A program made the position numbers and the translations under genes. Positions 23,565 through 48,901 of a DNA stretch of 48,901 bases are shown piece after piece. Location: the IMG/VR virus record IMGVR_UViG_3300045988_155985; one strand, given 5' to 3'. The stretch is from a virus. Taxonomy: Duplodnaviria > Heunggongvirae > Uroviricota > Caudoviricetes. Under the pieces are notes generated by a model. The model ran no database searches. It saw only the letters and a program-made list of their open reading frames with translations, and had not been told where the DNA came from. Each line of letters opens with the position of its first letter. Position 1 is the first letter of the stretch.

Positions 23565-25799
23565 GTGAGTAAATTATTATTTACGATGACTGACGCCGGG
23601 CGTCAGGAGCTGGTTAATGCCAACAAAACAGGAACAAATAAAGTTGAGATTGTTTCTGTTGGTTTAGGTAGTAGATATTATGTCACGTCAACTTCACAAA
23701 CAAATATAACAAACGAAATAAAACGACTTACCACAATAGGTGGCAAAGTTGTTTCCCCTGATACAATTCATGTAACAGCGAAGGATGATAGTAAAGATGA
23801 GTATGTTGTCCATACAATAGGATTGTATACGAATAAGGGTACGTTGTTTGCTGTATACTCACAAGAACAAGCAATAATAAATAAAGCATCATCTACTATC
23901 GCTTTAATATCAAGTGATATAGCAATTAAAACTCTTGATACTAAAAATATTACATTTGGTGATATTGAGTTTATTAATCCTCCCGCGACCGAAACTGTTG
24001 TTGGGGTGGCAAGATTTGCTAATGAACAAGAAATTGATGCAGGTACAGATGATTCCCTTGCTGTTTCAGCAAAGCGGCTTAAGCAAGCCATTGTGAAACA
24101 TGAGCAATCACGTAATCATCCTGATGCAACTTTAACCTCAAAAGGCTTTGTTCAACTTAGCAGCGCCACCAATAGCACGTCTGAAACGCTTGCTGCGACG
24201 CCTAAGGCTGTTAAGGCAGCATATGACCTTGCTAACGCTAAATACACCGCACAGGACGCTACCACAGCGCGAAAAGGGATTGTTCAGCTCAGTAGTGCCA
24301 CCAACAGCACGTCTGAAACGCTAGCAGCAACACCAAAGGCTGTTAAGGCAGCGTATGATCTTGCGGTCGGAAAGGCTCCGTCCAATCACACGCATTCGTG
24401 GGAGCAGATAACAAATGTGCCTGTAGCTTCACTGACTGTAAGGGGAATAACTCAGCTCAGTAGTGCCACTAACAGCACGTCTGAAACGCTGGCTGCGACA
24501 CCAAAAGCTGTTAAGGCGGTAATGGATGAAACGAACAAGAAAGCGCCCTTAAACAGTCCTGCGCTGACCGGAACACCAACAACACCAACTGCGCCAAAAG
24601 GTACTAACAATACTCAGATCGCAAGCACGGCTTATGTTATGGCTGCGATCGCTGCCCTCGTGGACTCGTCGCCTGACGCACTGAATACGCTGAACGAGCT
24701 GGCTGCGGCGTTGGGCAACGACCCGAATTTTGCGACCACCATGACTAACGCGCTTGCGGGTAAGCAACCGAAAGATGCCACCCTGACGGCGCTGGCCGGG
24801 CTTGCTACTGCGGCAGACAGGTTTCCGTATTTTACGGGGAATGATGTTGCCAGTCTGGCAACCCTGACAAAAGTTGGGCGGGATATTCTTGCGAAATCGA
24901 CCGTTGCCGCCGTTATCGAATACCTCGGTTTGCAGGAAACGGTAAACAGGGCTGGTAACGCCGTGCAAAAAAATGGCGATACCTTGTCCGGTGGGCTTAC
25001 TTTTGAAAATGACTCAATCCTTGCTTGGATTCGAAATACTGACTGGGCGAAGATTGGATTTAAAAATGATGCCGATGGTGACACTGATTCATACATGTGG
25101 TTTGAAACAGGCGACAACGGCAATGAATATTTCAAATGGAGAAGCAAACAAAGCACCACAACAAAAGACCTGATGACGCTGAAATGGGATGCACTAAATA
25201 TTCTTGTTAATGCCGTCATTAATGGCAGCCTTGGAGTTGGTACGACGAATGCGTTAGGTGGTAGCTCTATTGTTCTTGGTGATAATGATACCGGATTTAA
25301 ACAGAATGGAGACGGTATTCTTGATGTTTACGCTAATAGTCAGCGAGTATTCCGCTTTCAGAATGGAGTTGCTATTGCTTTTAAAAACATTCAGGCAGGT
25401 GATAGTAAAAAATTCTCGCTATCCAGCTCCAACACCTCCACAAAGAATGTAACGTTTAATTTATGGGGTGCTTCAACCCGTCCAGTAGTTGCAGAGTTAG
25501 GCGATGAGGCAGGATGGCATTTCTATAGCCAGCGAAATACAGATAACTCGGTAATATTTTCTGTTAACGGTCAGATACAGCCCAGCAACTGGGGGAATTT
25601 TGATTCACGCTATGTAAAAGATGTTCGCCTGGGTACGCGAGTTGTTCAATTGATGGCGCGTGGTGGTCGTTATGAAAAAGCCGGACACGCAATTACCGGA
25701 TTAAGAATCATTGGTGAAGTAGATGGCGATGATGAAGCCATCTTCAGACCAATACAAAAATACATCAATGGCACATGGTATAACGTCGCACAGGTGTAA
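23565..25799 (+). CDS. tail fibre protein: constant N-terminal part plus variable C-terminal part in the currently expressed orientation
   Basis: 744 aa; GTG start after AAGGAA; internal fibre repeats; crossover site at 24923-24946 lies inside the gene. Confidence 0.8.
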   Translation: MSKLLFTMTDAGRQELVNANKTGTNKVEIVSVGLGSRYYVTSTSQTNITNEIKRLTTIGGKVVSPDTIHVTAKDDSKDEYVVHTIGLYTNKGTLFAVYSQEQAIINKASSTIALISSDIAIKTLDTKNITFGDIEFINPPATETVVGVARFANEQEIDAGTDDSLAVSAKRLKQAIVKHEQSRNHPDATLTSKGFVQLSSATNSTSETLAATPKAVKAAYDLANAKYTAQDATTARKGIVQLSSATNSTSETLAATPKAVKAAYDLAVGKAPSNHTHSWEQITNVPVASLTVRGITQLSSATNSTSETLAATPKAVKAVMDETNKKAPLNSPALTGTPTTPTAPKGTNNTQIASTAYVMAAIAALVDSSPDALNTLNELAAALGNDPNFATTMTNALAGKQPKDATLTALAGLATAADRFPYFTGNDVASLATLTKVGRDILAKSTVAAVIEYLGLQETVNRAGNAVQKNGDTLSGGLTFENDSILAWIRNTDWAKIGFKNDADGDTDSYMWFETGDNGNEYFKWRSKQSTTTKDLMTLKWDALNILVNAVINGSLGVGTTNALGGSSIVLGDNDTGFKQNGDGILDVYANSQRVFRFQNGVAIAFKNIQAGDSKKFSLSSSNTSTKNVTFNLWGASTRPVVAELGDEAGWHFYSQRNTDNSVIFSVNGQIQPSNWGNFDSRYVKDVRLGTRVVQLMARGGRYEKAGHAITGLRIIGEVDGDDEAIFRPIQKYINGTWYNVAQV
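24145..24530 (+). repeat. three imperfect direct repeats of about 78 bp inside the tail fibre gene
   Basis: Repeated peptide QLSSATNSTSETLAATPKAVKA; copies at about 24151, 24283 and 24451. Confidence 0.6.
24923..24946. repeat. left inverted repeat / recombination site of the invertible segment
   Basis: CCTCGGTTTGCAGGAAACGGTAAA; exact reverse complement at 27888-27911; core resembles gix/cix sites as recalled. Confidence 0.7.
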
Positions 25800-25802
25800 A
25801 TT

Positions 25803-26336
25803 ATGCAGCATTTAAAAAATATTAAGTCAGGAAATCCAAAAACAAAAGAGCAATATCAGCTAACAAAGAATTTTGATGTTATCTGGTTATGGTCCGAAGA
25901 CGGTAAAAACTGGTATGAAGAACAAAAGAACTTTCAGGAAAACACAATAAAGCTAGCTTACACAGCAGAGGGAATTATTGTTGCTATTGATAAGGATGTA
26001 TCGGCAATTAATCCAGAAGGTTTAAGCGTTGTTGAGTTGCCTGATATAACGGCCAATAGACGGGCTGATATTTCGGGTAACTGGATGTTCAAAGATGGCG
26101 CGGTGATAAAGCGAACTTATACCGAGGAGGAACAGAGGCAGCAGGCAGAGAATGAAAAGCAAAGCCTGTTGCAACTTGTCAGGGATAAAACCCAGCTATG
26201 GGACTCACAGCTACGGCTGGGTATCATTTCCGACGAGAATAAACTAAAATTAACCGAGTGGATGCTCTATGCGCAGAAAGTCGAATCTACAGACACCTCC
26301 AGCCTGCCAGTAACGTTTCCCGAACAACCAGAATGA
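25803..26336 (+). CDS. tail fibre assembly protein (expressed orientation)
   Basis: 177 aa; N-terminus [14 protein letters not shown] shared with the minus-strand paralog. Confidence 0.75.
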
Positions 26337-26364
26337 GACAAGGCCCGCTATCGGGCCTTAATTT

Positions 26365-26892
26365 TTATTCAGGCTTTTGTGGCCATTCAGGATTTGCCGT
26401 ATCCACACGGCTGACCAGAACACTGTAGCGTTCCCATGATTCCAGTCGTGCGCGTTCCTCATCCGTCGCCATATTCAGCCTGACAGCGCGCTCCAGTGGC
26501 TGAATAACGCTTTCTGCTTCGGAAAGTAACGCGGCCTTTTGTGATTCGGCCTGTTGTTGCTGTTCGTCAGCCGTATAAATCCGTTTAACCACAGCTCCGT
26601 CCTTAAACATCCACTTACCGGAATCATCGGCCCGACGATTGGTTGTTATATCGGGAACCTCAACGACGCTAAAACCTTCAGGGTTAAGCGTGGATGCATC
26701 TTTGGTGATGGCGACAATAATATTATTTTCATCGTAAACAATCTTTATGGTGTCTGGCTGAAAGTTTTTCACTTCCTCATACCAGTTTTTTCCGTCCTCA
26801 GAGTAAAGCCAGATAACTCCGTGTTTCTTTGTTAACTCATACTGTTCCAGTGTTTTAGCGTTACCCGCTTTTATGTTCTTTAAGTGCATCAT
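26365..26892 (-). CDS. alternative tail fibre assembly protein (silent orientation)
   Basis: 175 aa; paralogous N-terminus [14 protein letters not shown]; convergent to 25803-26336. Confidence 0.75.
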
Positions 26893-26893
26893 A

Positions 26894-27904
26894 TTAAACG
26901 CTCGCTACATTATACCAGGTGCCATTTATATACTTTTGAACGGGTCTGTAATAAACGCCCGCTATATTATCGGCAGAATTGGACCCTGTATCCTGAACAT
27001 TAATACCAGTCAATACATGACCTGACGGGCACTGGAAATTCCATGTTTGCCAGTTGTTCACGCCATAATATTGCTGTGAACCAAGTCGAACATCTTTCAC
27101 ATAACGGGAATCAAAGTTACCGTAATCTGAGGGATTAACACGCCCTGTAATATTTATGGTTTTATTACTTTGAATACTGCCGGAGACAAAGCGCATAACA
27201 TGGACGTTATTAGCATAAACATCCAGATACCCGTCGCCATTTTGTTTAAATCCCGTGTCATTATCACCCAAAACAATCGAGTTACCGCCAAGAGCACTGG
27301 ATGTACCGATGCCCAGTGCACCATTCAATTGACCTCCAGATAATGACAACGCCCCAACATCAGCAGCAGTCGGTTTAATGTGCGAACTGTAAATTACATA
27401 TACAGTTCCATCTGTCAGACCTGTTGGTTTATTCGCTGTATAAGTTGGTGATGTATGAATCGTTACGCTGGCGTTACTGGTATAATCCCACTGAATATTA
27501 ACACCTGTGGCGTAATTACCTATTTCAACATAAACATCATAGGTATCACCTGATGTATTCACCCATGCAAAATTAGTAAATCCAACCGATGTCCGTCGCC
27601 ATAACGCACCAGTAAGACCTTTTGGATTTCCATTTCCCGCACGAAGAACAAGTTCAGATATACCAGCCTGCATAGGGGAGTTAACATTATATCCAGCACC
27701 ACCAATCAGGCTTATGTAAACCACGGAACTGGCTTGTGGCATTGTTACAGTTGCCAGTTTGAACCATCCAGCACCACCACTAAAAGACATGGTTGTTGAA
27801 TTTGTTGTGCCGATATTACGCAGGAATAGTTTTTTATCGGGAATATCTGCGCCGTTCTGGTTTTTCTGTAATGCGCCAGAAGCCTGATTTACCGTTTCCT
27901 GCAA
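26894..27904 (-). CDS. alternative tail fibre C-terminal variable region (promoterless until inversion)
   Basis: Track start is TTG; encodes LQETVNQ which continues the fibre frame across the crossover site; shares [17 protein letters not shown] and C-terminal [11 protein letters not shown] with the plus-strand fibre. Confidence 0.7.
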
Positions 27905-27911
27905 ACCGAGG
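27888..27911. repeat. right inverted repeat / recombination site of the invertible segment
   Basis: TTTACCGTTTCCTGCAAACCGAGG, reverse complement of 24923-24946. Confidence 0.7.
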
Positions 27912-27985
27912 TTTTTGCGAATTGCCTCTGTGTCGTCTGAACGATATTTTTTCCCGCTTTTAGCAACAATCGCGGTTTAGAAAGT

Positions 27986-28540
27986 ATGCAATATGGTTAT
28001 GCGAGGGTGTCAACTTTTGACCAGAATTTGGAATTACAACTGGAGGCGCTCAGGAGTTTAGGATGTGACCGGATTTTTGAAGATAAAATATCCGGTGCTA
28101 AATCAAAACGACCAGGACTTGATAAGCTACTTAAGGTGTTACGGCCGGGCGATACGGTTATTGTCTGGAAGCTGGACCGAATGGGGCGTTCTCTGATTCA
28201 TCTTGTTGATTTACTTAACCATTTTTTATCAAACAACATTGAGTTTATTTCGATTACGGAAGGGATAAAAATTAGCACTTCAATTGGCCGCTTTGCCTAC
28301 ACGATGCTGAGTGCAGTCGCAGAGATGGAGCGGGAAAATATGATTGAAAGAACGCGTGCAGGATTGGCGGTGGCAAGGGCTAACGGCAGGATAGGAGGAC
28401 GCCGCTCAAAGCTGGCACCAGAGCAATGGGAACAGATCGGAAGGCTTATTGCGAATGGTGTTTCACGTAAGCGGATAGCGATTATCTTCGATGTTACCTT
28501 ATCCACGCTTTACCGCAGGTTTCCGGCTGGGAATCATTGA
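27986..28540 (+). CDS. serine-recombinase DNA invertase (Hin/Gin/Cin family)
   Basis: N-terminal GYARVSTFDQ with catalytic Ser, central resolvase motifs, C-terminal HTH; adjacent to the invertible segment. Confidence 0.9.
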   Translation: MQYGYARVSTFDQNLELQLEALRSLGCDRIFEDKISGAKSKRPGLDKLLKVLRPGDTVIVWKLDRMGRSLIHLVDLLNHFLSNNIEFISITEGIKISTSIGRFAYTMLSAVAEMERENMIERTRAGLAVARANGRIGGRRSKLAPEQWEQIGRLIANGVSRKRIAIIFDVTLSTLYRRFPAGNH

Positions 28541-32280: not shown

Positions 32281-32393
32281 TATTTATATAATTATAGATT
32301 TATATAAAAAGTGCTTTACAGGTGGGAAAAAATTTCCTAAGGTTATACCCGAAACCGAGCGATACCCGCCCTGGTTAAACCGGAGATAACCCG
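32281..32393 (+). promoter_or_regulatory. promoter-operator-leader cassette, copy B
   Basis: AT-rich repeat 32281-32310; -35-like TTTACA 32315-32320; 17-bp spacer with inverted repeat GGAAA-AAA-TTTCC; -10-like TAAGGT 32338-32343; conserved 50-nt leader. Confidence 0.5.
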
Positions 32394-32774
32394 ATGAGCA
32401 TGATTAAAATCCGCAAAAACGCTTTCCTTAAAATTCAAACTATCCTGGCTGGTTCTGTTGGCGTGATTTGCCGTTCTTCCTCAAGCCGCATCGATGACGG
32501 CTACGATGATGAGTATCGTGTGTCCTCATGCGATGAGGCTTTAACCTGGCTGAAGGAGAATCAGGAACGTGCCCAGGTATATCTGGAAACAGAGAACGGC
32601 AATCAGATGCTGCGTATTAGCGGTCGTTATGGATTTGAAACTACATTCATGGCCTATTTTAATCAGGCTTACTTTGACAAGGAGTTGGCTTGGTACACTG
32701 ATCGCATGAGCAAAAGCGAGCCAGCCCCGATTACACCGCCGAACAATAAACCATTTTTATTCCTCGTTAAGTAA
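32394..32774 (+). CDS. hypothetical protein, 126 aa, first gene of cassette B
   Basis: ORF track; ATG within conserved leader context. Confidence 0.5.
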   Translation: MSMIKIRKNAFLKIQTILAGSVGVICRSSSSRIDDGYDDEYRVSSCDEALTWLKENQERAQVYLETENGNQMLRISGRYGFETTFMAYFNQAYFDKELAWYTDRMSKSEPAPITPPNNKPFLFLVK

Positions 32775-33919: not shown

Positions 33920-35065
33920 TTATGGTCTGCTTTTCTGTGCCAGCTTATCAGCACATGTTTTTATCAGATCCTGTAGTGTCCTGGCTGGCAGGTTTGCATC
34001 CAGAACGCTGAGTATGCTGTTGTGATCAGCCTGGTCGACTACTTTGCCTGTCGGTGGTAGTAGCTTGAGCTGAGGATTCAGGTTTTCGTCAAAGCTGATA
34101 AGTGCTCTGGCGTTTCTGAGCAGATCAAGAAGTAAGGCTGATATCACATTTTCCTGAGTCATTGCTGGCAGATTTAGCGCCGCTTTAGTTTTCCCTGTTG
34201 CCTTGTCAAACTCCTTGATTAGTTCCTTCCTGTAGTTCGGTTCCGTTAATAGCCGATTATGCTCTGTTGCCGCGCGGATAATCGTTTTTTCCTGGTATAG
34301 TCGTTTAGCCAGATCACGCTCGTACTGTGTTTTTAACACGCTGCTGATAGCGTTAAAGGCTTCAATGTAGGCCAGCTTGATATCTTTCACGCCTGGACCG
34401 TCGATGCTCTCCATGAGCAAGGTAAATCCGTCTTTTGTCATGCGATAGATTGTTATTTCGCGGTCGCTTCCTTCCAGCGGTCGTTGTTCTTTAAAAAAGT
34501 GACGCGCCGCAGCTGTGCGAGGAATGCGTAACGCATCGATGGCCATAACGATGGAATTGTTTGTGGTGCTGAATGCCTGGGCAACATCGGCTGAGGTTGT
34601 GAGTGGCTCGTTATTGCACACCTTAATGTAAAACATCGGTTTGGCGTTGAGCGTATCGACAACCTCACGAGCATTGTTTGGCGAGACGGTTACGGTCGCG
34701 GCCGTTTGCGCGTTCTGGTTGAAATAGCAGTCTTCCAGTTTTTCGAACACATCCCAAGCCTGATCGGTTTCAAGCATTTTGGCGTGACGTGCAGCCCCGC
34801 GTTCTGTCCAGAGGATGAGGGAGCGGACTTTAGGTGAAACTGGATTTTGTGAGTAGTTTAAAGCTACCCGCAATTCTTTAAGGTCATTACCAACAACTTT
34901 GAAAAAGTGTTTCCCTTCAACGAAACGTACTTTGTTCTCATGATGATTCTGGCGAATACGCACCGGCTCAGTGCCGTAAAGCTGTGCCAGTAACTCGGTA
35001 GTAATGACAGGGATTTGGTTATGCAGGATAGGCTGTAGGGTGTTAACGGTCGGAAGCGTTTTCAT
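33920..35065 (-). CDS. antirepressor (Ant-like) with ORF6N/Rha-like domains
   Basis: 381 aa; N-terminal VITTELLAQLYG and central ADVAQAFS segments resemble antirepressor/Rha-family domains. Confidence 0.7.
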   Translation of the reverse strand: MKTLPTVNTLQPILHNQIPVITTELLAQLYGTEPVRIRQNHHENKVRFVEGKHFFKVVGNDLKELRVALNYSQNPVSPKVRSLILWTERGAARHAKMLETDQAWDVFEKLEDCYFNQNAQTAATVTVSPNNAREVVDTLNAKPMFYIKVCNNEPLTTSADVAQAFSTTNNSIVMAIDALRIPRTAAARHFFKEQRPLEGSDREITIYRMTKDGFTLLMESIDGPGVKDIKLAYIEAFNAISSVLKTQYERDLAKRLYQEKTIIRAATEHNRLLTEPNYRKELIKEFDKATGKTKAALNLPAMTQENVISALLLDLLRNARALISFDENLNPQLKLLPPTGKVVDQADHNSILSVLDANLPARTLQDLIKTCADKLAQKSRP

Positions 35066-35253: not shown

Positions 35254-35418
35254 TGTGATGATTCCCTTAAAGGTTAAGGATACTCACCACCGTCAGGTTC
35301 CAATCATTGGGTGGTGAGACGTGCAGGGTTGGAACTACCGGACACAATGACGAACCGGCGAGTCTTACGACTCCCCCGCACGCCCCACCATAATTTGGGT
35401 GTAGCAGTGCTTTACGCA

Positions 35419-35440
35419 TAAAAAAACCGCTAACGCGGTA
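35419..35440 (-). terminator. minus-strand rho-independent terminator
   Basis: On the minus strand: hairpin ACCGCGTTAGCGGT followed by TTTTTTT. Confidence 0.5.
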
Positions 35441-35585
35441 TGCGCCATTGTGTCTACGGGGTTCCAATCCCGACCGTAGATTTTGCTACGGCTCGGAAAG
35501 TGTCCACCAATGGCGCATTCATGTCAATACGGCGGGATTTTAACAGAGACAACCACATAGCGTGGGTTTATTGGTAGGCAGAAAC

Positions 35586-35613
35586 AAAAAAACCGCCCTA
35601 TTGAGGACGGTTC
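35586..35613 (-). terminator. minus-strand rho-independent terminator
   Basis: On the minus strand: hairpin AACCGTCC-TCAATA-GGGCGGTT followed by TTTTTTTG. Confidence 0.55.
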
Positions 35614-35760
35614 TTTCGTGCTGATCGGATTCGCGGTCCTTTCAGCATAACGTCGTTGTATAAACAACCACGCAAGCACAAGCGGCGTATCTATTCTTAC
35701 TCAACTGAGGTGAATAGTCCACTATTCATATAAAGAAATTTAGTTCCTTAGTTCATGCAG
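35586..35760 (-). ncRNA. candidate small regulatory RNA upstream of the ant operon (c4-like position)
   Basis: ORF-free leader on the minus strand ending at terminators; self-complementary motifs GGTTCCAA and TTGGAAC nearby; no promoter defined. Confidence 0.25.
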
Positions 35761-35999
35761 AATGAAGTTTTTTAACTTCTTCGGATGTAATTACATGTAA
35801 TAAAAGCATTTGTTATTCCTTCATTATGAAGGCGAGGACGTGTAATATGGCTTGGGGCCTTTTCGCCGATTCGCACCCGGGCACCGACTTTAAGGAAAGG
35901 ATCATCCACTTGCCGTACACGCAAGCACAAGCGGTGTGCTTGCTCTCGCGTCATTTTCGTCGGTGGAGATGCCGTGAAACGGCCTGTAAGGGCCACACA

Positions 36000-36122
36000 A
36001 TGAAAAAATACTACATGTGTATTTTTATCGTTGTTACTGGAGCTTTGTTTACGCCACATGGGGAGGGTTGGAAGATTACTGATAACGCTCTGAATGTGAC
36101 GATAAACATTAGCAGCAAGTAG
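36000..36122 (+). CDS. small hydrophobic peptide, 40 aa
   Basis: MKKYYMCIFIVVTGALF N-terminus; ATG 36000; strong terminator immediately downstream. Confidence 0.3.
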   Translation: MKKYYMCIFIVVTGALFTPHGEGWKITDNALNVTINISSK

Positions 36123-36128
36123 CGATTA

Positions 36129-36150
36129 GGCCCCTTCGGGGGCCTTTTTT
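36129..36150 (+). terminator. rho-independent terminator
   Basis: Hairpin GGCCCC-TTCG-GGGGCC followed by TTTTTT. Confidence 0.6.
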
Positions 36151-36627: not shown

Positions 36628-36664
36628 CCCCTCTTATATAAATCTATAAAACTATAATTATATA

Positions 36665-37318
36665 TTACGCGGCAGTAGTCAGAGCCTCAAGCTGGTTGAT
36701 AATCCCCTGAATAACGTCGTCTGCCTTTTTGCGTGGCGCAACGTATGAGCACTCAATGAGGCTTAAGCCCTTATCCTGAGCTTTGCTCAGAGCTGGCTTG
36801 TGGGGAATGTACTTATCGACAACAAAGTATGGCGTATTAGCCAGGTACTCTTGGGCTTCAATATAGTCAGCTTCGTTTTCAGCCGCGCCGGAAAACACCA
36901 TGCAAATTTTCTTGATTGGTACACCCTTTTTAACGATGCCGTGAGCTGTGTTAACGGTGGTTTCCAGGTCATCGGTAGAGAATCTGGTTGGTAAAATAAC
37001 CATATCCAGAAATTCAGAGAGCTTCGGTACTGATTCAGATGCGTAGGCACCGCCATCGACGATAACCAGGTCGTATACTTCTGATTCGATGATTTTCTGG
37101 ACTTGTGATGGTGTGCCGCACGGCTGCGCCGCGATTGCTGGTTCGATATTGTTGGCCATTCTGCGTTGTACCCAACGCGTTACCGTTCCGTTAAGCACAT
37201 CCATATCGATCAGGCATACATTCCAGCCGGCCTTTGCATAAGCAACTGCTAAAGCACGGGCAATTGTTGATTTGGTTACGCCGCCTTTTCCGTTGAAAAT
37301 ACCTACAGAGATAGTCAT
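36665..37318 (-). CDS. parA: partition ATPase, small ParA (ParF-like, type Ib)
   Basis: Deviant Walker A GKGGVTKST; about 217 aa; ATG 37318 (track start 37333). Confidence 0.85.
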   Translation of the reverse strand: MTISVGIFNGKGGVTKSTIARALAVAYAKAGWNVCLIDMDVLNGTVTRWVQRRMANNIEPAIAAQPCGTPSQVQKIIESEVYDLVIVDGGAYASESVPKLSEFLDMVILPTRFSTDDLETTVNTAHGIVKKGVPIKKICMVFSGAAENEADYIEAQEYLANTPYFVVDKYIPHKPALSKAQDKGLSLIECSYVAPRKKADDVIQGIINQLEALTTAA

Positions 37319-37341: not shown

Positions 37342-37446
37342 TTATATAATTCTATAAATCTATATTTATAGAACGAGGTAAGCATAACCAACTTTTTGGC
37401 GGATGAAAAGCGTTTTATATAATTATATAAAACTATAATCATATAA
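37342..37446. repeat. AT-rich TATAATTATA-type repeat cluster upstream of parA; candidate centromere/operator
   Basis: Two blocks (37342-37373, 37412-37446); a related block at 36632-36667 between parA and parG. Confidence 0.4.
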
Positions 37447-41166: not shown

Positions 41167-41285
41167 AAATCTATAAATATATAATTATAGATTTATATAA
41201 AAAGTGCTTTACAGGTGGGAAAAAATTTCCTAAGGTTATACCCGAAACCGAGCGATACCCGCCCTGGTTAAACCGGAGAAATCTG
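41167..41285 (+). promoter_or_regulatory. promoter-operator-leader cassette, copy C
   Basis: AT-rich repeat 41167-41203; TTTACA 41208-41213; spacer with GGAAA-AAA-TTTCC; TAAGGT 41231-41236; conserved leader. Confidence 0.5.
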
Positions 41286-42353
41286 ATGAATAAACAAGAA
41301 ATTATTTCTGACTGGATCAACAACCCTAACAGCCTGTTAAGCACTGATACTGGCTACCTATTACGCCATGTTAATGGTCGTATGGTCAAAAGCGATGAGC
41401 ACGAAACCTTTTTCTTTGTTGAAGACGATGGGCGCATCTATGAGGATGGTTACTCTTATGAAGCCCAAACTGGTTGTATCCCTGCGGAGCTGGTGGACGT
41501 AACAGAAGATCTGCGCAAAGCATGGCTTGAACAGCAGCAGCGCGGAGATGATTACGTAAACACCTATCAGGAACGCCAGAACGCGCGTCTTGCCCGATAT
41601 ATTGCTCGTGCAGAAAAAGCCAGAAAAGAAGGTGCGGTAGCGCATAAGCGAGCGCATGACCTGTTGGATGTGATCCCGTTAGGCCAGCCGATTTTAGTTG
41701 ACCATTATAGCGCGAAAGGCCATCGCCGCCGTTTGTCTAAAGCTGATGCGTTATTAAGAAAAGCGTTTGTTGAATGCGAAAGTAAAGCATCACACTACGA
41801 GAGCAAAGCCGCAGGTGTTGGTCGTAATGGAATTTCGTCTGATGATCCTGATGCGCTATTTAAGTTGCTTCGTAAGCTGCAAGGCTGCATGAAGTCACAC
41901 GTCAAAATGAAGGCCGCAAATAAGGCCATTCGCAAATACAAAAAAGACCAATTACAGCAGCTTTCTGCATTAATCGATCTCAGGTTTACAGAAAGCGAAG
42001 CCAAAGAGTTACTGGCCGGAGATTTCTGTGGGCGCATCGGATTCCCTTCATACGCACTGAGCAACAATAACGCCGAAATCAAACGACTACAGAGCCGTAT
42101 TAAGGAGCTTGAATCGGTCAAGTCTGTAACAGGAGCACAGCGCGAAGAATACGACGGCTTTTCTATGGAGATAGATCCAGAGGATAACCGCATCCTGTTT
42201 TATTTCCCTGGCAAACCAGAGGCAAACATTCGTTCGCTGCTTAAATCACGCGCCTTTAAGTGGAGTCCAACCCGTAATGCATGGGTTCGCAAGATTACTC
42301 CAAACGCCCTGGCTGATGCCCGATATCTAAAAGAATCGCTATTGAAAGCCTGA
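41286..42353 (+). CDS. hypothetical protein, 355 aa, first gene of cassette C
   Basis: ORF track; basic helical C-terminal half; no catalytic motif recognised. Confidence 0.5.
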   Translation: MNKQEIISDWINNPNSLLSTDTGYLLRHVNGRMVKSDEHETFFFVEDDGRIYEDGYSYEAQTGCIPAELVDVTEDLRKAWLEQQQRGDDYVNTYQERQNARLARYIARAEKARKEGAVAHKRAHDLLDVIPLGQPILVDHYSAKGHRRRLSKADALLRKAFVECESKASHYESKAAGVGRNGISSDDPDALFKLLRKLQGCMKSHVKMKAANKAIRKYKKDQLQQLSALIDLRFTESEAKELLAGDFCGRIGFPSYALSNNNAEIKRLQSRIKELESVKSVTGAQREEYDGFSMEIDPEDNRILFYFPGKPEANIRSLLKSRAFKWSPTRNAWVRKITPNALADARYLKESLLKA

Positions 42354-42390: not shown

Positions 42391-42430
42391 GAATTATATA
42401 TTTATATAAATGTATAAGGACGCCTCGACA

Positions 42431-44548: not shown

Positions 44549-44733
44549 AAAACCGTAAAGCAAAGATTCTGTTAGTTCGTAGAAACGCTCCTGGCGTCTG
44601 GCAGTGGGTGAGACTCAGCAACCGACGGATGGGGTTAATGAAACATTACGGGATGATGGATTGTGGTTTTTGCAAAAAGCCCAGCGCGGCGCAAAACCGC
44701 TGGAAAAACCATTTGCGCACTAAAGGAGAGTGA
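44545..44733 (+). CDS. hypothetical protein, 62 aa
   Basis: ORF track; ATGA overlap. Confidence 0.35.
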   Translation: MKNRKAKILLVRRNAPGVWQWVRLSNRRMGLMKHYGMMDCGFCKKPSAAQNRWKNHLRTKGE

Positions 44734-44734
44734 T

Positions 44735-45250
44735 ATGGCGTTAACACACCGCGAACTCTGTCAGATTGCGTACAAGTTCCTTAAGCGCAACGGGTTCAAG
44801 GTTTGTTTTCATGACCGCTTTATAGCTGTAACCAGTACCGGAGAACAGCCAGATGCTATGGGATTCAGAAATTCAGCATCATGCCTGATAGAGGCGAAGT
44901 GTTCTCGTGCTGATTTGTTGGCAGATAGAAAAAAGCGTTTCCGTAAAAATCCCTCACTTGGCATGGGCGACTGGCGATTCTTTATTAGTGAGCCGGGAAT
45001 TATTTCAATTGAGGATTTACCACCTGGCTGGGGATTACTTCACGTTGTTAACGGAAGAGTACGGAAAGTACATGGGTGGCCCAAGGGTAATTGCTGTTGG
45101 GGTAATCCTGACGATAAGCCATTTACTGGAAATAAGCAGGTTGAATGCGATTACATGTTATCTGCATTAAGGCGCATGGAGTTGAGAGGGCACCTTAATG
45201 AAATATATGACGGTGTAATCCTTAATAAGCAAGAAGGAAACGCGGCATGA
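44735..45250 (+). CDS. putative PD-(D/E)xK-type nuclease
   Basis: ATG 44735 after AAAGGAGAG; candidate motif PDAMG ... IEAKCS. Confidence 0.4.
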   Translation: MALTHRELCQIAYKFLKRNGFKVCFHDRFIAVTSTGEQPDAMGFRNSASCLIEAKCSRADLLADRKKRFRKNPSLGMGDWRFFISEPGIISIEDLPPGWGLLHVVNGRVRKVHGWPKGNCCWGNPDDKPFTGNKQVECDYMLSALRRMELRGHLNEIYDGVILNKQEGNAA

Positions 45251-47520: not shown

Positions 47521-47644
47521 TACCGCCTGTGATTGGGTAAAGCCCATCTACCTGACTGATCACGACATCGATGTTATGGACCGCCAGACAAAGAAAGATA
47601 TTCTGGCTCATAACAGGGCATGGGAAATCAACTGCCCAAAGTAA
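47435..47644 (+). CDS. o-spanin (Rz1-like lipoprotein), overlapping the i-spanin in another frame
   Basis: Lipobox-like LIASC with Cys at residue 18; starts inside 47242-47520. Confidence 0.6.
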   Translation: MYSRVLTIWLMTMLIASCGSRGSVPVVVDTACDWVKPIYLTDHDIDVMDRQTKKDILAHNRAWEINCPK

Positions 47645-47813
47645 TATATATTTCTGTAATTATATAAATATATAGTTACAACATTCTATGCGCTTTTCTC
47701 ATGAGCGCACGCATCAACCATGTTTGTCTGATATGCCGCCGCGCCCAAAAATCCTGAATTTATTGGCTGGGATTTTCGTGCGCGGCGCCACACCAGACAA
47801 ACAGATCAAATAT

Positions 47814-47889
47814 GGCCCCTTAGCTCAGTGGTTAGAGCAGGCGACTCATAATCGCACGGTCATCGGTTCAAATCCGGTAGGGGCCACCA
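47814..47889 (+). tRNA. tRNA with CAU anticodon (Met or lysidine-dependent Ile2; resembles ileX-type)
   Basis: Perfect 7-bp acceptor stem GGCCCCT/AGGGGCC; D-arm GCTC/GAGC; anticodon loop CTCATAA; T-arm with TTCAAAT; encoded 3' CCA. Confidence 0.85.
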
Positions 47890-48102
47890 ATTCACTCTCA
47901 CACATAAAGATGAGCACGAAGGAAGTAACTCCACCGCGCTTATCTTTATGCGTGCCTGGTGCGCATTTCGGGCGAACGTGGGGCTAAGTTACAGGCAGGG
48001 CCTGTTATCCGCAAAGGGGTAAAAGCTGGAGCGGCACGGAACTGTAGCCGTGTTACCAAAACAGCGTTGTCGGGCGATATCCGGCACACAACAGGCAAGG
48101 GC

Positions 48103-48135
48103 ATTAATCAGTCTGGTTAGTGCCCTTTTCGTTGT
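48103..48135 (+). terminator. hairpin/terminator downstream of the tRNA
   Basis: GGGCATTAATCAGTCTGGTTAGTGCCC followed by TTTTCGTT. Confidence 0.4.
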
Positions 48136-48197
48136 GTTTGCTGTAGAGCTGGCCAGCGTTATGACTGCCGGAGATAAGCGCCGGAGACACAACTAAC

Positions 48198-48785
48198 ATG
48201 GAGGCAATTGCATTGTTTAATCTGATTTATGCAGATCCCCCCTGGGAATACAAAGACAAGTGTAAGGATGGGAATCGTGGCGCTGGTTTTAAGTATCCAA
48301 CGATGAAAGCTGAGGATATTGCTCGTATTCCTGTCTGGCAGCTTGCTAATCCTGAATCGTGTTTGTTGGCCATGTGGTGGGTTCCGACTCAGCCAGAAGA
48401 AGCGTTGCTGGTGGTGAAAGCATGGGGATTCAGGCTGATGACCATGAAGGGCTTCACATGGAACAAATGTGGTAGCCGACAGCCAGACAAGCTGGTGATG
48501 GGGATGGGGCATATGACTCGTGCAAACAGTGAAGATTGCTTGTTTGCGGTAAAAGGCAAACTGCCGACCCGCCTTGATGCGGGGATTATTCAGTCGTTTA
48601 CATCGCCTCGTCTGGAGCATTCTCGGAAGCCTGATGTGGTCCGTGACAAGCTGGTAAAGCTGTTAGGCGATGTTCCTCGTATTGAGCTGTTTGCTCGCGG
48701 TGATTTACCTGATGGCTGGCATGGCTGGGGCAACCAGTGCAACGGAGGTATCCAGTTGCATGATGCTCTCTGGCAAATGTCATAG
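48198..48785 (+). CDS. DNA N6-adenine methyltransferase, MT-A70 family
   Basis: LIYADPPWEY (DPPW motif); 195 aa. Confidence 0.75.
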   Translation: MEAIALFNLIYADPPWEYKDKCKDGNRGAGFKYPTMKAEDIARIPVWQLANPESCLLAMWWVPTQPEEALLVVKAWGFRLMTMKGFTWNKCGSRQPDKLVMGMGHMTRANSEDCLFAVKGKLPTRLDAGIIQSFTSPRLEHSRKPDVVRDKLVKLLGDVPRIELFARGDLPDGWHGWGNQCNGGIQLHDALWQMS

Positions 48786-48901
48786 AATTATATAATTATA
48801 GATTTATATAAAAAATGCTTTACAGGTGGGAAAAAATTTCCTAAGGTTATACCCGAAACCGAGCGATACCCGCCCTGGTTAAACCGGAGATAACCCGATG
48901 A
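48786..48901 (+). promoter_or_regulatory. promoter-operator-leader cassette, copy D (same physical copy as window start on the circle)
   Basis: AT-rich repeat 48786-48815; TTTACA 48819-48824; spacer with GGAAA-AAA-TTTCC; TAAGGT 48842-48847; leader continues as 1-55. Confidence 0.5.

Follow-up and report, generated by a model that had tools for sequence, protein, structure and literature searches.

The ileZ-argN-argO cluster of Stx phages includes a phage-encoded tRNA with a CAU anticodon to which the one described here can be likened, and P1-type phage-plasmids, which like the present element have Escherichia coli as host and encode an adenine methylase of their own, carry a tRNA-Ile gene that we take to be trnI of phage P1. 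CAU tRNAs bearing IleRS and TilS signatures are also found in T4-like phages, where they are thought to aid translation of the AT-richer phage genes and where the lysidine-type tRNA-Ile is the most conserved tRNA (PMC1524935). T4-like and Stx phages are lytic or integrating and usually encode several tRNAs. The bacterial counterparts of these genes, ileX and ileY of E. coli, are chromosomal.

Stand-alone adenine methylases lacking a nuclease are likewise established among phages, P1 Dmt and T1 Dam being orphan enzymes of this type; Dmt belongs to the classical Dam family, unlike the MT-A70 enzyme considered below. M.EcoT1Dam has been cited as modifying GATC (PMC4996451). For the small MT-A70 methylases of enterobacterial phages, the literature disagrees as to whether the substrate is DNA or RNA: M.EcoGV, described as highly similar to the enzyme of phiPA8, is listed with GATC specificity, an activity reported in vivo (PMC6602927, PMC10810198), whereas M.EcoPA8orf6770P, a relative from an Stx prophage, together with its partner PNB-2 is reported to methylate 16S rRNA, with a preference for 30S subunits and weak activity on DNA (PMC10810198).

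Here we describe a module combining a CAU tRNA gene (47814..47889, + strand) with an MT-A70 methyltransferase gene (48198..48785, + strand) within a DNA of 48,901 nucleotides, hereafter the window; both genes occupy exactly the positions assigned to them in a first-pass annotation. The module is real, ordinary and already known, being annotated in dozens of public plasmids. We consider it probable that it is an accessory module of a phage-plasmid, comprising a tRNA-Ile2 for translation of AUA codons and a stand-alone methylase that probably acts on DNA.

The phage-plasmid and the layout of its module

What the window contains is a P2-tailed phage-plasmid of E. coli, complete and circular, ~48.85 kb in length. 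It contains structural genes of a P2-like myovirus together with an IncFII-type RepA (E 1e-43) and ParA, and a relative 98-99% identical to it is annotated with terminase, portal, capsid, sheath, tube, baseplate, holins and endolysin. Because the ends of the window overlap by 55 nt (bases 1-55 equal 48847-48901), it represents a closed circle, on which virion and lysis genes coexist with functions for replication and partition, the combination by which phage-plasmids are recognized. Relatives have been deposited both as circular plasmids and as Yersinia phage isolates. At least 58 public plasmids, 46-51 kb in size, and three Yersinia phages carry the tRNA/methylase module, which is located just 3' of the lysis cassette, and a family member with the methylase gene is present in E. 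coli ATCC 25922. We found no published name for this 46-51 kb family; assignment to the "pSLy3" phage-plasmid group was considered and rejected, pSLy3 belonging to the ~100-kb SSU5 supergroup. The sole recombinase of the element is a serine invertase (27986-28540), located beside an invertible tail-fibre segment 19 kb from the module.

Several conserved sequences accompany the two genes. An AT-rich block, TATATATTTCTGTAATTATATAAATATATAGTTACAACATTC (47645..47686, + strand), includes TATAGT at 47671-47676 and is a putative regulated promoter or operator of the transcript bearing the RNA cargo. It is nearly identical in a Salmonella relative in which the sequences flanking it diverge, and it has a TAATTATA..TATATA core in common with three 114-nt repeated leaders. 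This core motif occurs 31 times in the element versus 6.4 expected and clusters in intergenic regions. The leaders, at 32284, 41177 and 48788, are 92-100% identical; the third copy (48788..48901, + strand), a repeated promoter/leader ending in GGAG..ATG, directly follows the methylase gene and starts the next operon, with ORF 52-273 on the closed circle. A scan with the sigma-70 consensus revealed no promoter around the module or near the tRNA, so we infer promoter function for the AT-rich block from its conservation only.

Immediately 5' of the tRNA gene lies a long hairpin (47721..47803, + strand) with a stem of ~34 pairs, folding at -42.7 kcal/mol (z-score -4.5). Compared with the Salmonella relative, four of its pairs are changed on both sides with pairing kept and 23 are unchanged; the hairpin may act in processing or attenuation. 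A second, imperfect hairpin (47899..47954, + strand; -27.8 kcal/mol, z-score -5.2) begins 9 nt past the 3' end of the tRNA. Its interior (~47910-47945) is inverted relative to most family members, being present as the exact reverse complement in a plasmid of E. coli AR_0067, in Yersinia phage YpM_41 and in six viral contigs; plasmid pRHB41-C23_4 of E. fergusonii has it in the orientation seen in the window. The conserved spacer that follows (47955..48085, + strand) has no recognisable gene or RNA family and an ordinary folding energy (z-score 0.21), is identical in three family members and is largely conserved in the Salmonella relative. To look for a further RNA gene or a decayed tRNA in the 300-nt gap, 47600-48260 was compared with Rfam at E <= 10; nothing but the tRNA exceeded the threshold, and the spacer was without a match. 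Below threshold there were only a faint similarity to rydB (24.8 bits, the gathering score being 50), hairpin-like matches and the tRNA read in antisense.

The RNA cargo is separated from the methylase gene by a hairpin resembling an intrinsic terminator (48086..48137, + strand), in which a stem of 14 pairs (48097-48127), extended further by folding, is followed by TTCGTTGTGT within a T-rich tail. Small ORFs in this region (47959-48120, 48050-48196 and two on the minus strand) were rejected as genes, having no convincing ribosome-binding site; one of those in the gap overlaps the terminator, and in a relative both substitutions within its hydrophobic stretch are non-synonymous.

In the Salmonella relative the methylase is retained while the tRNA is missing, its place being taken by a different, conserved structured RNA of ~340 nt; this replacement sequence is present in the Salmonella plasmids CP053324.1, NZ_CP044178.1 and NZ_LN890526.1. 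The tRNA is therefore dispensable for this type of phage, and tRNA and methylase do not form an obligate pair.

The MT-A70 methyltransferase and its substrate

The gene at 48198..48785 encodes a protein of 195 aa that aligns with the entire Pfam MT-A70 model (PF05063, positions 1-172 of 172; E 4e-23, 82.6 bits versus a cut-off of 23.9) and matches PHROG 359, "DNA methyltransferase" (E 1e-102), and the PADLOC class MTase_II (E 8e-69). It retains every residue invariant among 19 aligned sequences and carries the catalytic motif D13-P14-P15-W16; the Stx homologue lost its function when DPPW was mutated to APPA (PMC10810198). The closest described enzymes, M.EcoGV and M.EcoPA8orf6770P of Stx2 prophages, have in common with it the DPPW motif, the NKCG..DKLVMGMG loop and the domain length; the loop in the window and Stx2-phage enzymes reads NKCGSRQPDKLVMGMG, and identity to the methylase of Stx2 phage P13374 is 72.6% over 175 aa. 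The Stx enzymes differ in being 208 aa long, with a longer C-terminal tail, and in being co-transcribed with an upstream PNB-2 gene, in place of which the window has the tRNA and terminator. The methylase of P1-type phage-plasmids is a large Dam-family protein encoded 3 kb from the tRNA, not an MT-A70 enzyme.

The first-pass annotation had described a DPPW-motif adenine methyltransferase without a restriction partner, and both elements of that description proved accurate: the enzyme is intact, and no restriction endonuclease of a known family was found next to the module or elsewhere in the element when flanking ORFs were compared with Pfam, PHROG and PADLOC and the PGAP gene names of a relative were inspected. 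The lone exception among neighbouring ORFs otherwise free of nuclease or defence matches is ORF 348-803, with a marginal resemblance to PtuB (E 0.006). The further designation as an orphan protective enzyme is sustained as regards the missing nuclease partner; the protective role is unproven, the nearest studied relatives being reported as a GATC methylase in vivo (M.EcoGV) or, in company with PNB-2, as a 16S rRNA methylase (PMC10810198).

In our preferred explanation the methylase, positioned behind the terminator, is most likely a Dam-like orphan acting on DNA at GATC or a near-GATC sequence, and would preserve methylation on phage DNA as it is replicated. The element contains fewer GATC sites than expected (observed/expected 0.63), a deficit compatible with methylation at this sequence and equally with its absence, and no GATC clusters suggestive of a methylation mark at pac or ori were present, no 300-nt interval containing five or more sites. 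Specificity for GATC would duplicate that of host Dam. The methylome of E. coli ATCC 25922 comprises only the motifs GATC, CCWGG, RTACNNNNGTG and GGTCTC (PMC12679398); since this strain carries the gene, the enzyme contributes no further motif to DNA methylation in this lysogen.

An alternative that we regard as unlikely is that the methyltransferase acts on 16S rRNA or another stable RNA and constitutes, together with the tRNA, a cassette that retunes host translation at induction. The preference for 16S rRNA in 30S subunits reported for M.EcoPA8orf6770P pertains to an enzyme of the same subfamily: the equivalent P13374 gene product is the 72.6% identical protein noted above, and a mutagenic primer used in that study encodes an altered version of TLIYADPPWTFRD, a peptide of this protein (PMC10810198). 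A sequence search of the PDB with the window enzyme returned eukaryotic MT-A70 proteins, namely ciliate chains designated "MT-a70 family protein" and "mRNA m(6)A methyltransferase", then METTL3, and the methylase gene shares its module with structured RNA cargo in the E. coli and Salmonella lineages alike. Activity on rRNA in that study, however, needed PNB-2, of which no homologue was detected in the window (tblastn with the protein at the PNB-2 position of P13374; best E 0.5), and the ~27-aa C-terminal tail proposed for PNB-2 binding is likewise missing, the window protein stopping 14 residues past the conserved WGNQC with a tail unrelated to that of the Stx enzyme. Moreover, M.EcoGV expressed without a partner is listed as specific for GATC in DNA, and the M.EcoPA8orf6770P study never established which rRNA base is modified (PMC10810198). 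The family containing this module could help to settle whether the small MT-A70 methylases so widespread in enterobacterial phages have DNA or RNA as substrate.

A broader and more doubtful version of this proposal views the locus as a conserved cassette of RNA cargo plus methylase, in which the cargo is exchangeable (tRNA-Ile2 in Escherichia, the ~340-nt RNA in Salmonella) and the MT-A70 enzyme acts on rRNA or tRNA. If this were true, a unit of regulated AT-rich promoter, covarying hairpin, RNA, terminator and methylase would serve to reprogram host translation on induction.

Identity and predicted role of the tRNA

ARAGORN identified exactly one tRNA in the window, on the + strand at 47814-47889 (76 nt, with anticodon CAT at position 34), a setting distinct from the multiple tRNAs usual in T4-like and Stx phages; the Rfam tRNA model scores it at 67 bits versus a gathering score of 29. 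As had been suspected from the initial inspection, it closely resembles ileX, the chromosomal tRNA-Ile gene of E. coli located between mug and nfeF: 68 of 76 positions are identical, including all of positions 1-42 (with U12-A23 and C29-G41), and length, CAU anticodon, A73 and the encoded CCA end agree with both ileX and ileY. The eight substitutions include A43-C44 for U43-U44 and a difference at position 59, and five lie in the T stem, where three pairs are changed and all five remain paired. The acceptor stem GGCCCCU/AGGGGCC is that of ileX; given the identity at positions 1-42, the tRNA therefore carries C4-G69 and C5-G68, the dominant positive determinants of E. coli TilS (PMC2500205, PMC12514573). 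Judged by these features, the gene encodes an intact ileX-type tRNA-Ile2, predicted to be lysidine-modified by host TilS. PGAP labels the identical gene tRNA-Ile on plasmid NZ_CP032259.1 and applies the same label on P1-like plasmids.

The G27.U43 wobble of E. coli tRNA-Ile2 is replaced, through A43, by a G27.A43 mismatch, the only nonstandard pair among the 21 of the cloverleaf; this makes it a variant tRNA-Ile2 and is no disqualifying failure. Among 15 distinct relatives 98.1% of cloverleaf positions are paired and 10 pairs are changed on both sides, an outcome reached by none of 500 shuffles. The tRNA-Ile of P1-type phage-plasmids, 94.7% identical, has in common with it the derived A43-C44 and the CCGG T stem. 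It differs in U26 and a U6.G67 pair and in its surroundings, lying between genes for an SPFH-domain protein and a dnaB-like helicase with tRNA-Asn and tRNA-Thr nearby. It is conceivable, though improbable, that the G27.A43 mismatch common to the tRNA-Ile2 genes of phage-plasmids is adaptive, altering how the tRNA is handled by host enzymes or defences.

Codon usage is consistent with the proposed role of the tRNA in reading AUA. This codon occurs at 16.8 per 1000 codons in the element, about five times the 3.2 per 1000 in a host sample of 30 E. coli genes from a single chromosomal region, and its share of isoleucine codons is 26.7% in the element and 31.3% in the late genes versus 5.7% in that sample. 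The enrichment makes codon supply plausible and accords with the suggestion in the first-pass annotation that the tRNA provides rare-codon capacity; supply itself is an extrapolation from codon counts, and AGA and AGG are enriched 12-15 fold, versus 5 fold for AUA, in an element that carries no tRNA-Arg, so that codon supply is not a complete account of why this particular tRNA is carried. In other phages the same tRNA variant is arrayed with tRNA-Arg(UCU), tRNA-Thr(UGU) and tRNA-Ser(UGA), which match the other most enriched codons of the window, AGA, ACA and UCA. In the pathway we envisage, the tRNA transcript would be matured by RNase P and 3' processing, C34 would be converted to lysidine by host TilS, and the product would be charged by IleRS and read AUA. 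As the host holds tRNA-Ile2 scarce and AUA makes up 27% of isoleucine codons in the element (31% in late genes) against ~6% in the host gene sample, an extra gene copy would most likely relieve a translation bottleneck in lytic growth. Common in E. coli, including reference strain ATCC 25922, the element family offers a convenient setting for testing whether a single phage-borne tRNA-Ile2 benefits an AUA-rich phage.

It has also to be considered that the tRNA serves mainly as a reserve copy or decoy countering tRNA-cleaving or tRNA-depleting host defences, not as a codon supplement, a role we find improbable. The phage-borne lineage, including the P1-like tRNA-Ile, has the derived A43-C44 and a distinct T arm, a variant representing 42 of the 124 ileX-like copies found on viral contigs, and its persistence in several phage backgrounds that are not related to one another points to selection acting on the body of the tRNA. 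Yet positions 28-42, which take in the entire anticodon loop and the greater part of the stem, are identical in the host tRNA, and an anticodon nuclease cutting the host molecule should therefore cut the phage copy too; we know of no nuclease specific for tRNA-Ile2, and the codon counts already provide sufficient reason for carrying the gene.

Both ARAGORN and the GenBank records of the Yersinia phages label the tRNA as Met from its anticodon alone, but that it is an elongator tRNA-Met, or a decaying pseudogene, is very improbable. The G27.A43 mismatch does weaken the anticodon stem, and the minimum-energy fold of the single sequence is not a cloverleaf. On alignment with metT, metU and metY, however, the elongator elements U4-A69, A5-U68, C27-G43, C30-G40 and G44 are all absent, the tRNA differing from metT and metU at the acceptor stem, anticodon stem and variable loop; U4-A69 and A5-U68 are negative determinants for TilS (PMC2500205, PMC12514573), and C27-G43 and G44, recognition elements of TmcA on tRNA-Met (PMC2500205), give way here to other residues, position 30-40 being G-C. 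The tRNA carries negative determinants for TmcA and positive ones for TilS. Initiator elements (C1xA72; three G-C pairs at 29-31/39-41) are absent as well, the first pair being G1-C72. Against decay stand the Rfam score well above threshold, the preservation of all other pairs with compensatory changes, and the occurrence of the identical sequence on dozens of plasmids. The Met label is consequently wrong for this lysidine-type tRNA-Ile, and its correct annotation is what matters most here.

Least credible is the notion that the tRNA is a former or current integration site and the methylase half of a restriction-modification system. In its favour, many ileX-like viral copies lie at contig ends, as at prophage borders, and PADLOC places the enzyme among Type II methyltransferases. 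Against it, no tyrosine integrase was found next to the module or elsewhere in the element (as the first-pass annotation had maintained for the adjacent region), the lone recombinase is the serine invertase beside the tail-fibre segment, the element replicates as a plasmid by means of RepA and ParA, and apart from the marginal PtuB similarity the ORFs nearby resemble no nuclease or defence family. The tRNA spans its full length, and its departures from the host gene fall in the 3' half, not the 5' half, the opposite of an attP remnant.

Phage-plasmid context of the module

[quoted passage not shown] ARAGORN, Rfam, Pfam, PHROG and PADLOC confirmed the coordinates and description first assigned to both genes. 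The least ordinary aspects are a conserved G27.A43 variant of the tRNA, an exchangeable-cargo architecture, and the question of DNA versus RNA as substrate of the methylase subfamily.

Bases 1-55 are an exact 55-nt duplicate of bases 48847-48901, which makes the record a closed circular assembly of ~48,846 bp whose opening point lies just past the methylase gene; once the circle is closed, the gene following the methylase is an ORF at 52-273. Over most of its length the window is 96-99% identical to an annotated relative, the circular 49.9-kb AR_0067 plasmid of E. coli, and the NCBI annotation of that plasmid includes terminase, portal, capsid, tail sheath and tube, baseplate and tail fibre genes together with holins, an endolysin, RepA, ParA and a RelE/ParE toxin. 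The window itself encodes an IncFII-family RepA (E 1e-43) and a confirmed ParA ATPase, with a GH108 endolysin and Rz-like spanins directly upstream of the tRNA. Three Yersinia pestis phages isolated as virions are 97-98% identical in the module region, and at least 58 plasmids of 46-51 kb, all circular and non-mobilizable, carry the full-length module in Escherichia, Klebsiella and others. The term 'phage-plasmid' is a fair description of this element. One family member is a plasmid of E. coli ATCC 25922 (NZ_CP009073.1; 48,488 bp), with a tRNA and methylase module 96% identical to that of the window, which makes this widely used reference strain an easy experimental system.

Segment 43948-45247 varies among family members, and within it a 195-aa ORF (44663-45250), matching nothing in Pfam or PADLOC, has by eye a PD-(D/E)xK-like motif (..EQPD..IEAKC..); 3 kb separate this ORF from the methylase, which it does not adjoin. 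Rfam matches above gathering score to C4 antisense RNA (35307-35395, -), isrK (35420-35492, -) and ryfA (35853-36150, +) adjoin an ORF6N/Rha antirepressor-like gene (33920-35065, -), which suggests an antisense immunity region of the P1/P7 style at 35307-36150.

A phage-borne tRNA-Ile2

The sole tRNA found by ARAGORN in the 48,901-base window (47814-47889, +; anticodon CAT) scores 67 bits with the Rfam tRNA model, for which the gathering score is 29. Every one of the 5,426 complete E. coli genomes has a match of at least 89.5%, annotated tRNA-Ile, and the chromosomal copy between mug and nfeF is ileX. We aligned the window tRNA with ileX, the P1-like plasmid tRNA-Ile, metT, metU and the initiator metY. 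The resemblance to ileX-type tRNAs proposed in the first-pass annotation proved real, positions 1 to 42 being identical to ileX and the eight differing positions being 43, 44, 49, 50, 51, 59, 63 and 65. Within the T stem (49-51/63-65) the G-C, C-G and U-A of ileX are replaced by A-U, U.G and C-G, so that all pairs survive. Read directly, the sequence also has A73, U12-A23, C29-G41, A37 and A38, which we take to be IleRS identity elements. It retains C4-G69 and C5-G68, the dominant positive determinants of E. coli TilS, for which U4-A69 and A5-U68 of tRNA-Met are negative determinants (PMC2500205; PMC12514573). TmcA recognises tRNA-Met by C27-G43, G44 and position-30/40 features in which the window tRNA differs (PMC2500205): G30-C40 is present, C27-G43 and G44 are absent, and G1-C72 further separates it from the initiator. 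We reject the label 'tRNA-Met' applied by ARAGORN and GenBank phage records, which derives from the anticodon only, since the TilS determinants are kept and the tRNA-Met features are missing. A comparison of 15 distinct ileX-like sequences taken from viral contigs gives a cloverleaf pairing of 98.1% and 10 pairs in which both sides have changed, a result matched by none of 500 shuffles; the anticodon arm, fixed by the search pattern, is uninformative in this comparison. We conclude from these sequence features that the gene would specify a functional tRNA-Ile2.

The one irregularity, A for U at position 43, creates a G27.A43 mismatch (window 47840/47856). Host ileX has U43-U44; a phage-borne tRNA-Ile2 lineage has A43-C44 (at the tRNA-bearing loci L005, L013, L016, L019, L020 and others). 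The combination of A43, C44 and a CCGG T stem is common to 42 of the 124 ileX-like copies on viral contigs, drawn from several unrelated phage backgrounds and including the tRNA-Ile that P1-type phage-plasmids carry as their own copy, 94.7% identical to that of the window. The A43-C44 tRNA is a conserved phage-borne lineage rather than a product of decay.

Neither is the gene an attachment-site remnant: no tyrosine integrase is found anywhere in the element, whether among window ORFs or in the relative's annotation, the tRNA is complete, and its host-identical portion is the 5' rather than the 3' part, the reverse of an attP fragment. The first-pass annotation had reached the same view. The only recombinase in the element is a 184-aa serine invertase (27986-28540; Resolvase and HTH_7 domains). 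It closes a tail-fibre region (23565-28540) in which two assembly genes and a second fibre C-terminal gene are oppositely oriented. This apparently invertible host-range segment, of a type found in Mu and P1, is absent from the AR_0067 plasmid.

Codons were counted in 77 window ORFs, picked greedily by length and freed of obvious artefacts, with 30 annotated E. coli genes from the neighbourhood of ileX as host baseline. AUA accounts for 16.8 per 1000 codons and 26.7% of Ile codons in the window, versus 3.2 per 1000 and 5.7% in the host sample; in 26 late structural genes, the class to which the earlier annotation had pointed, it reaches 20.4 per 1000 and 31.3%. The element is AT-richer (GC 44.5% overall; GC3 0.41 versus 0.61 in the host sample). 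By count AUA ranks first among codons served by scarce host tRNAs (248, versus 146 AGA and 96 AGG); by relative enrichment over the host sample AGA and AGG exceed it, and the five most enriched codons are AGA, ACA, UCA, AUA and AGG. On two other phage contigs (L013 2522-4755; L020 440-1664) the same or a nearly identical tRNA-Ile2 variant stands in a four-gene array with tRNA-Arg(UCU), tRNA-Thr(UGU) and tRNA-Ser(UGA), which fit the enriched A-ending codons AGA, ACA and UCA. Supply of A-ending codons is the accepted reading for T4-type phages, in which lysidine-type tRNA-Ile genes are long known (PMC1524935), and the codon pattern here is consistent with it. Of the rare-codon capacity first proposed, the enrichment in AUA is thus observed, and the supply itself we infer.

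The methyltransferase and its substrate

A 195-aa protein beginning MEAIALFNLIYADPPWEYKD is encoded at 48198-48785 (+). It matches the whole Pfam MT-A70 model (PF05063; E 4e-23), PHROG 359 'DNA methyltransferase' (E 1e-102) and the PADLOC Type II methyltransferase model (E 8e-69), and keeps every residue invariant among 19 aligned sequences. These include DPPW, by which an adenine methyltransferase had been recognised beside the tRNA. Phages and prophages of enterobacteria encode very many members of the family (6,455 proteins at E<=1e-5; 515 phage records). ORFs neighbouring the methylase match no nuclease family, which supports its predicted 'orphan' status; the protective role attributed to it is unproven.

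Its nearest studied relatives are Stx2-prophage enzymes. The product from Stx2 phage P13374, 72.6% identical over 175 aa, contains TLIYADPPWTFRD, a peptide that the mutagenic primers for M.EcoPA8orf6770P encode in mutated form, and the internal loop NKCGSRQPDKLVMGMG of the window enzyme is of the Stx type, versus HKTNKHKGNSAIGMG in the other subgroup. M.EcoGV is listed with GATC specificity and, over-produced, is said to methylate GATC in vivo (PMC6602927; PMC10810198). ATCC 25922 carries the methylase gene and has a methylome of only GATC, CCWGG, RTACNNNNGTG and GGTCTC (PMC12679398); the enzyme of this lysogen therefore methylates GATC, is silent, or does not act on DNA. Among the possible functions we modestly favour that of a Dam-like DNA methylase, and a GATC methylase would duplicate host Dam. 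A live if improbable rival is an RNA methylase, as M.EcoPA8orf6770P is weak on DNA and, with the upstream-encoded PNB-2, prefers 16S rRNA in 30S subunits (PMC10810198); against it, the window has no PNB-2 homologue, and its methylase lacks the C-terminal tail tied to PNB-2 by the same authors (PMC10810198).

Module architecture and an exchangeable slot

After the spanin stop codon at 47644 come an AT-rich block with TATAGT (47645-47686), an 83-nt hairpin (47721-47803; -42.7 kcal/mol, z-score -4.5), the tRNA, a second hairpin (47899-47954; z-score -5.2), a conserved spacer whose fold is not unusual, a terminator-like hairpin (48086-48137), the methylase gene and a 114-nt repeat (48788-48901). 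The Salmonella salamae plasmid CP053324.1 (locus L138) is built on the same frame, with a methylase region that is 79% identical; ARAGORN detects no tRNA in it, and the slot (L138 ~2096-2440) holds ~340 nt of unrelated, strongly structured, apparently non-coding sequence. It follows that the conserved slot takes exchangeable cargo, in the window the tRNA, and that the methylase is the constant member. The ~340-nt sequence, present also in NZ_CP044178.1 and NZ_LN890526.1 and partly in CP083756.1, yielded no convincing ORF, tRNA or Rfam match; its ~120-nt core recurs on plasmids of Serratia, Klebsiella and Leclercia, where the sole annotation is a 'hypothetical protein' covering one Leclercia match, and the whole may be an undescribed non-coding RNA. 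In the first hairpin (L138 2014-2094) four pairs are changed on both sides with pairing kept between the lineages, so the structure itself is under selection, possibly as a processing site, attenuator or protein-binding palindrome.

The 50-60 nt directly upstream of the methylase start (window 48138-48190; L138 2682-2734) are almost invariant between the window and L138, more so than the coding region, and may be a regulatory 5' leader; a rydB-like Rfam match upstream of the methylase is weak and sub-threshold (24.8 bits in the window, 25.7 in L138; gathering score 50). The interior of the second hairpin (~47910-47945) is the exact reverse complement in the AR_0067 plasmid, Yersinia phage YpM_41 and six viral contigs, and in the window it is oriented as in E. 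fergusonii plasmid pRHB41-C23_4. Template switching probably accounts for this small inversion polymorphism, which lies between short inverted repeats.

The 114-nt repeat occurs three times (32284-32397, 41177-41290 and 48788-48901; 92-100% identity), each copy ending with a Shine-Dalgarno sequence and the ATG that opens an operon, whose first genes are a 126-aa ORF, a DUF3560 protein and a 73-aa ORF. It matches no Rfam family and looks like the shared promoter and 5' leader of co-regulated operons. An AT-rich near-palindromic motif with core AATTATATAA / TAATTATA, mostly clustered and intergenic (31 observed versus 6.4 expected), occurs at 32282-32307, 36634-36665, 37342-37446, 41175-41200, 42392-42411, 47658-47669 and 48786-48811, among other places upstream of parA, the tRNA and the three 114-nt leaders, and may be an operator for a global regulator. 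Several ParB/Srx-domain proteins appear in the relative's annotation.
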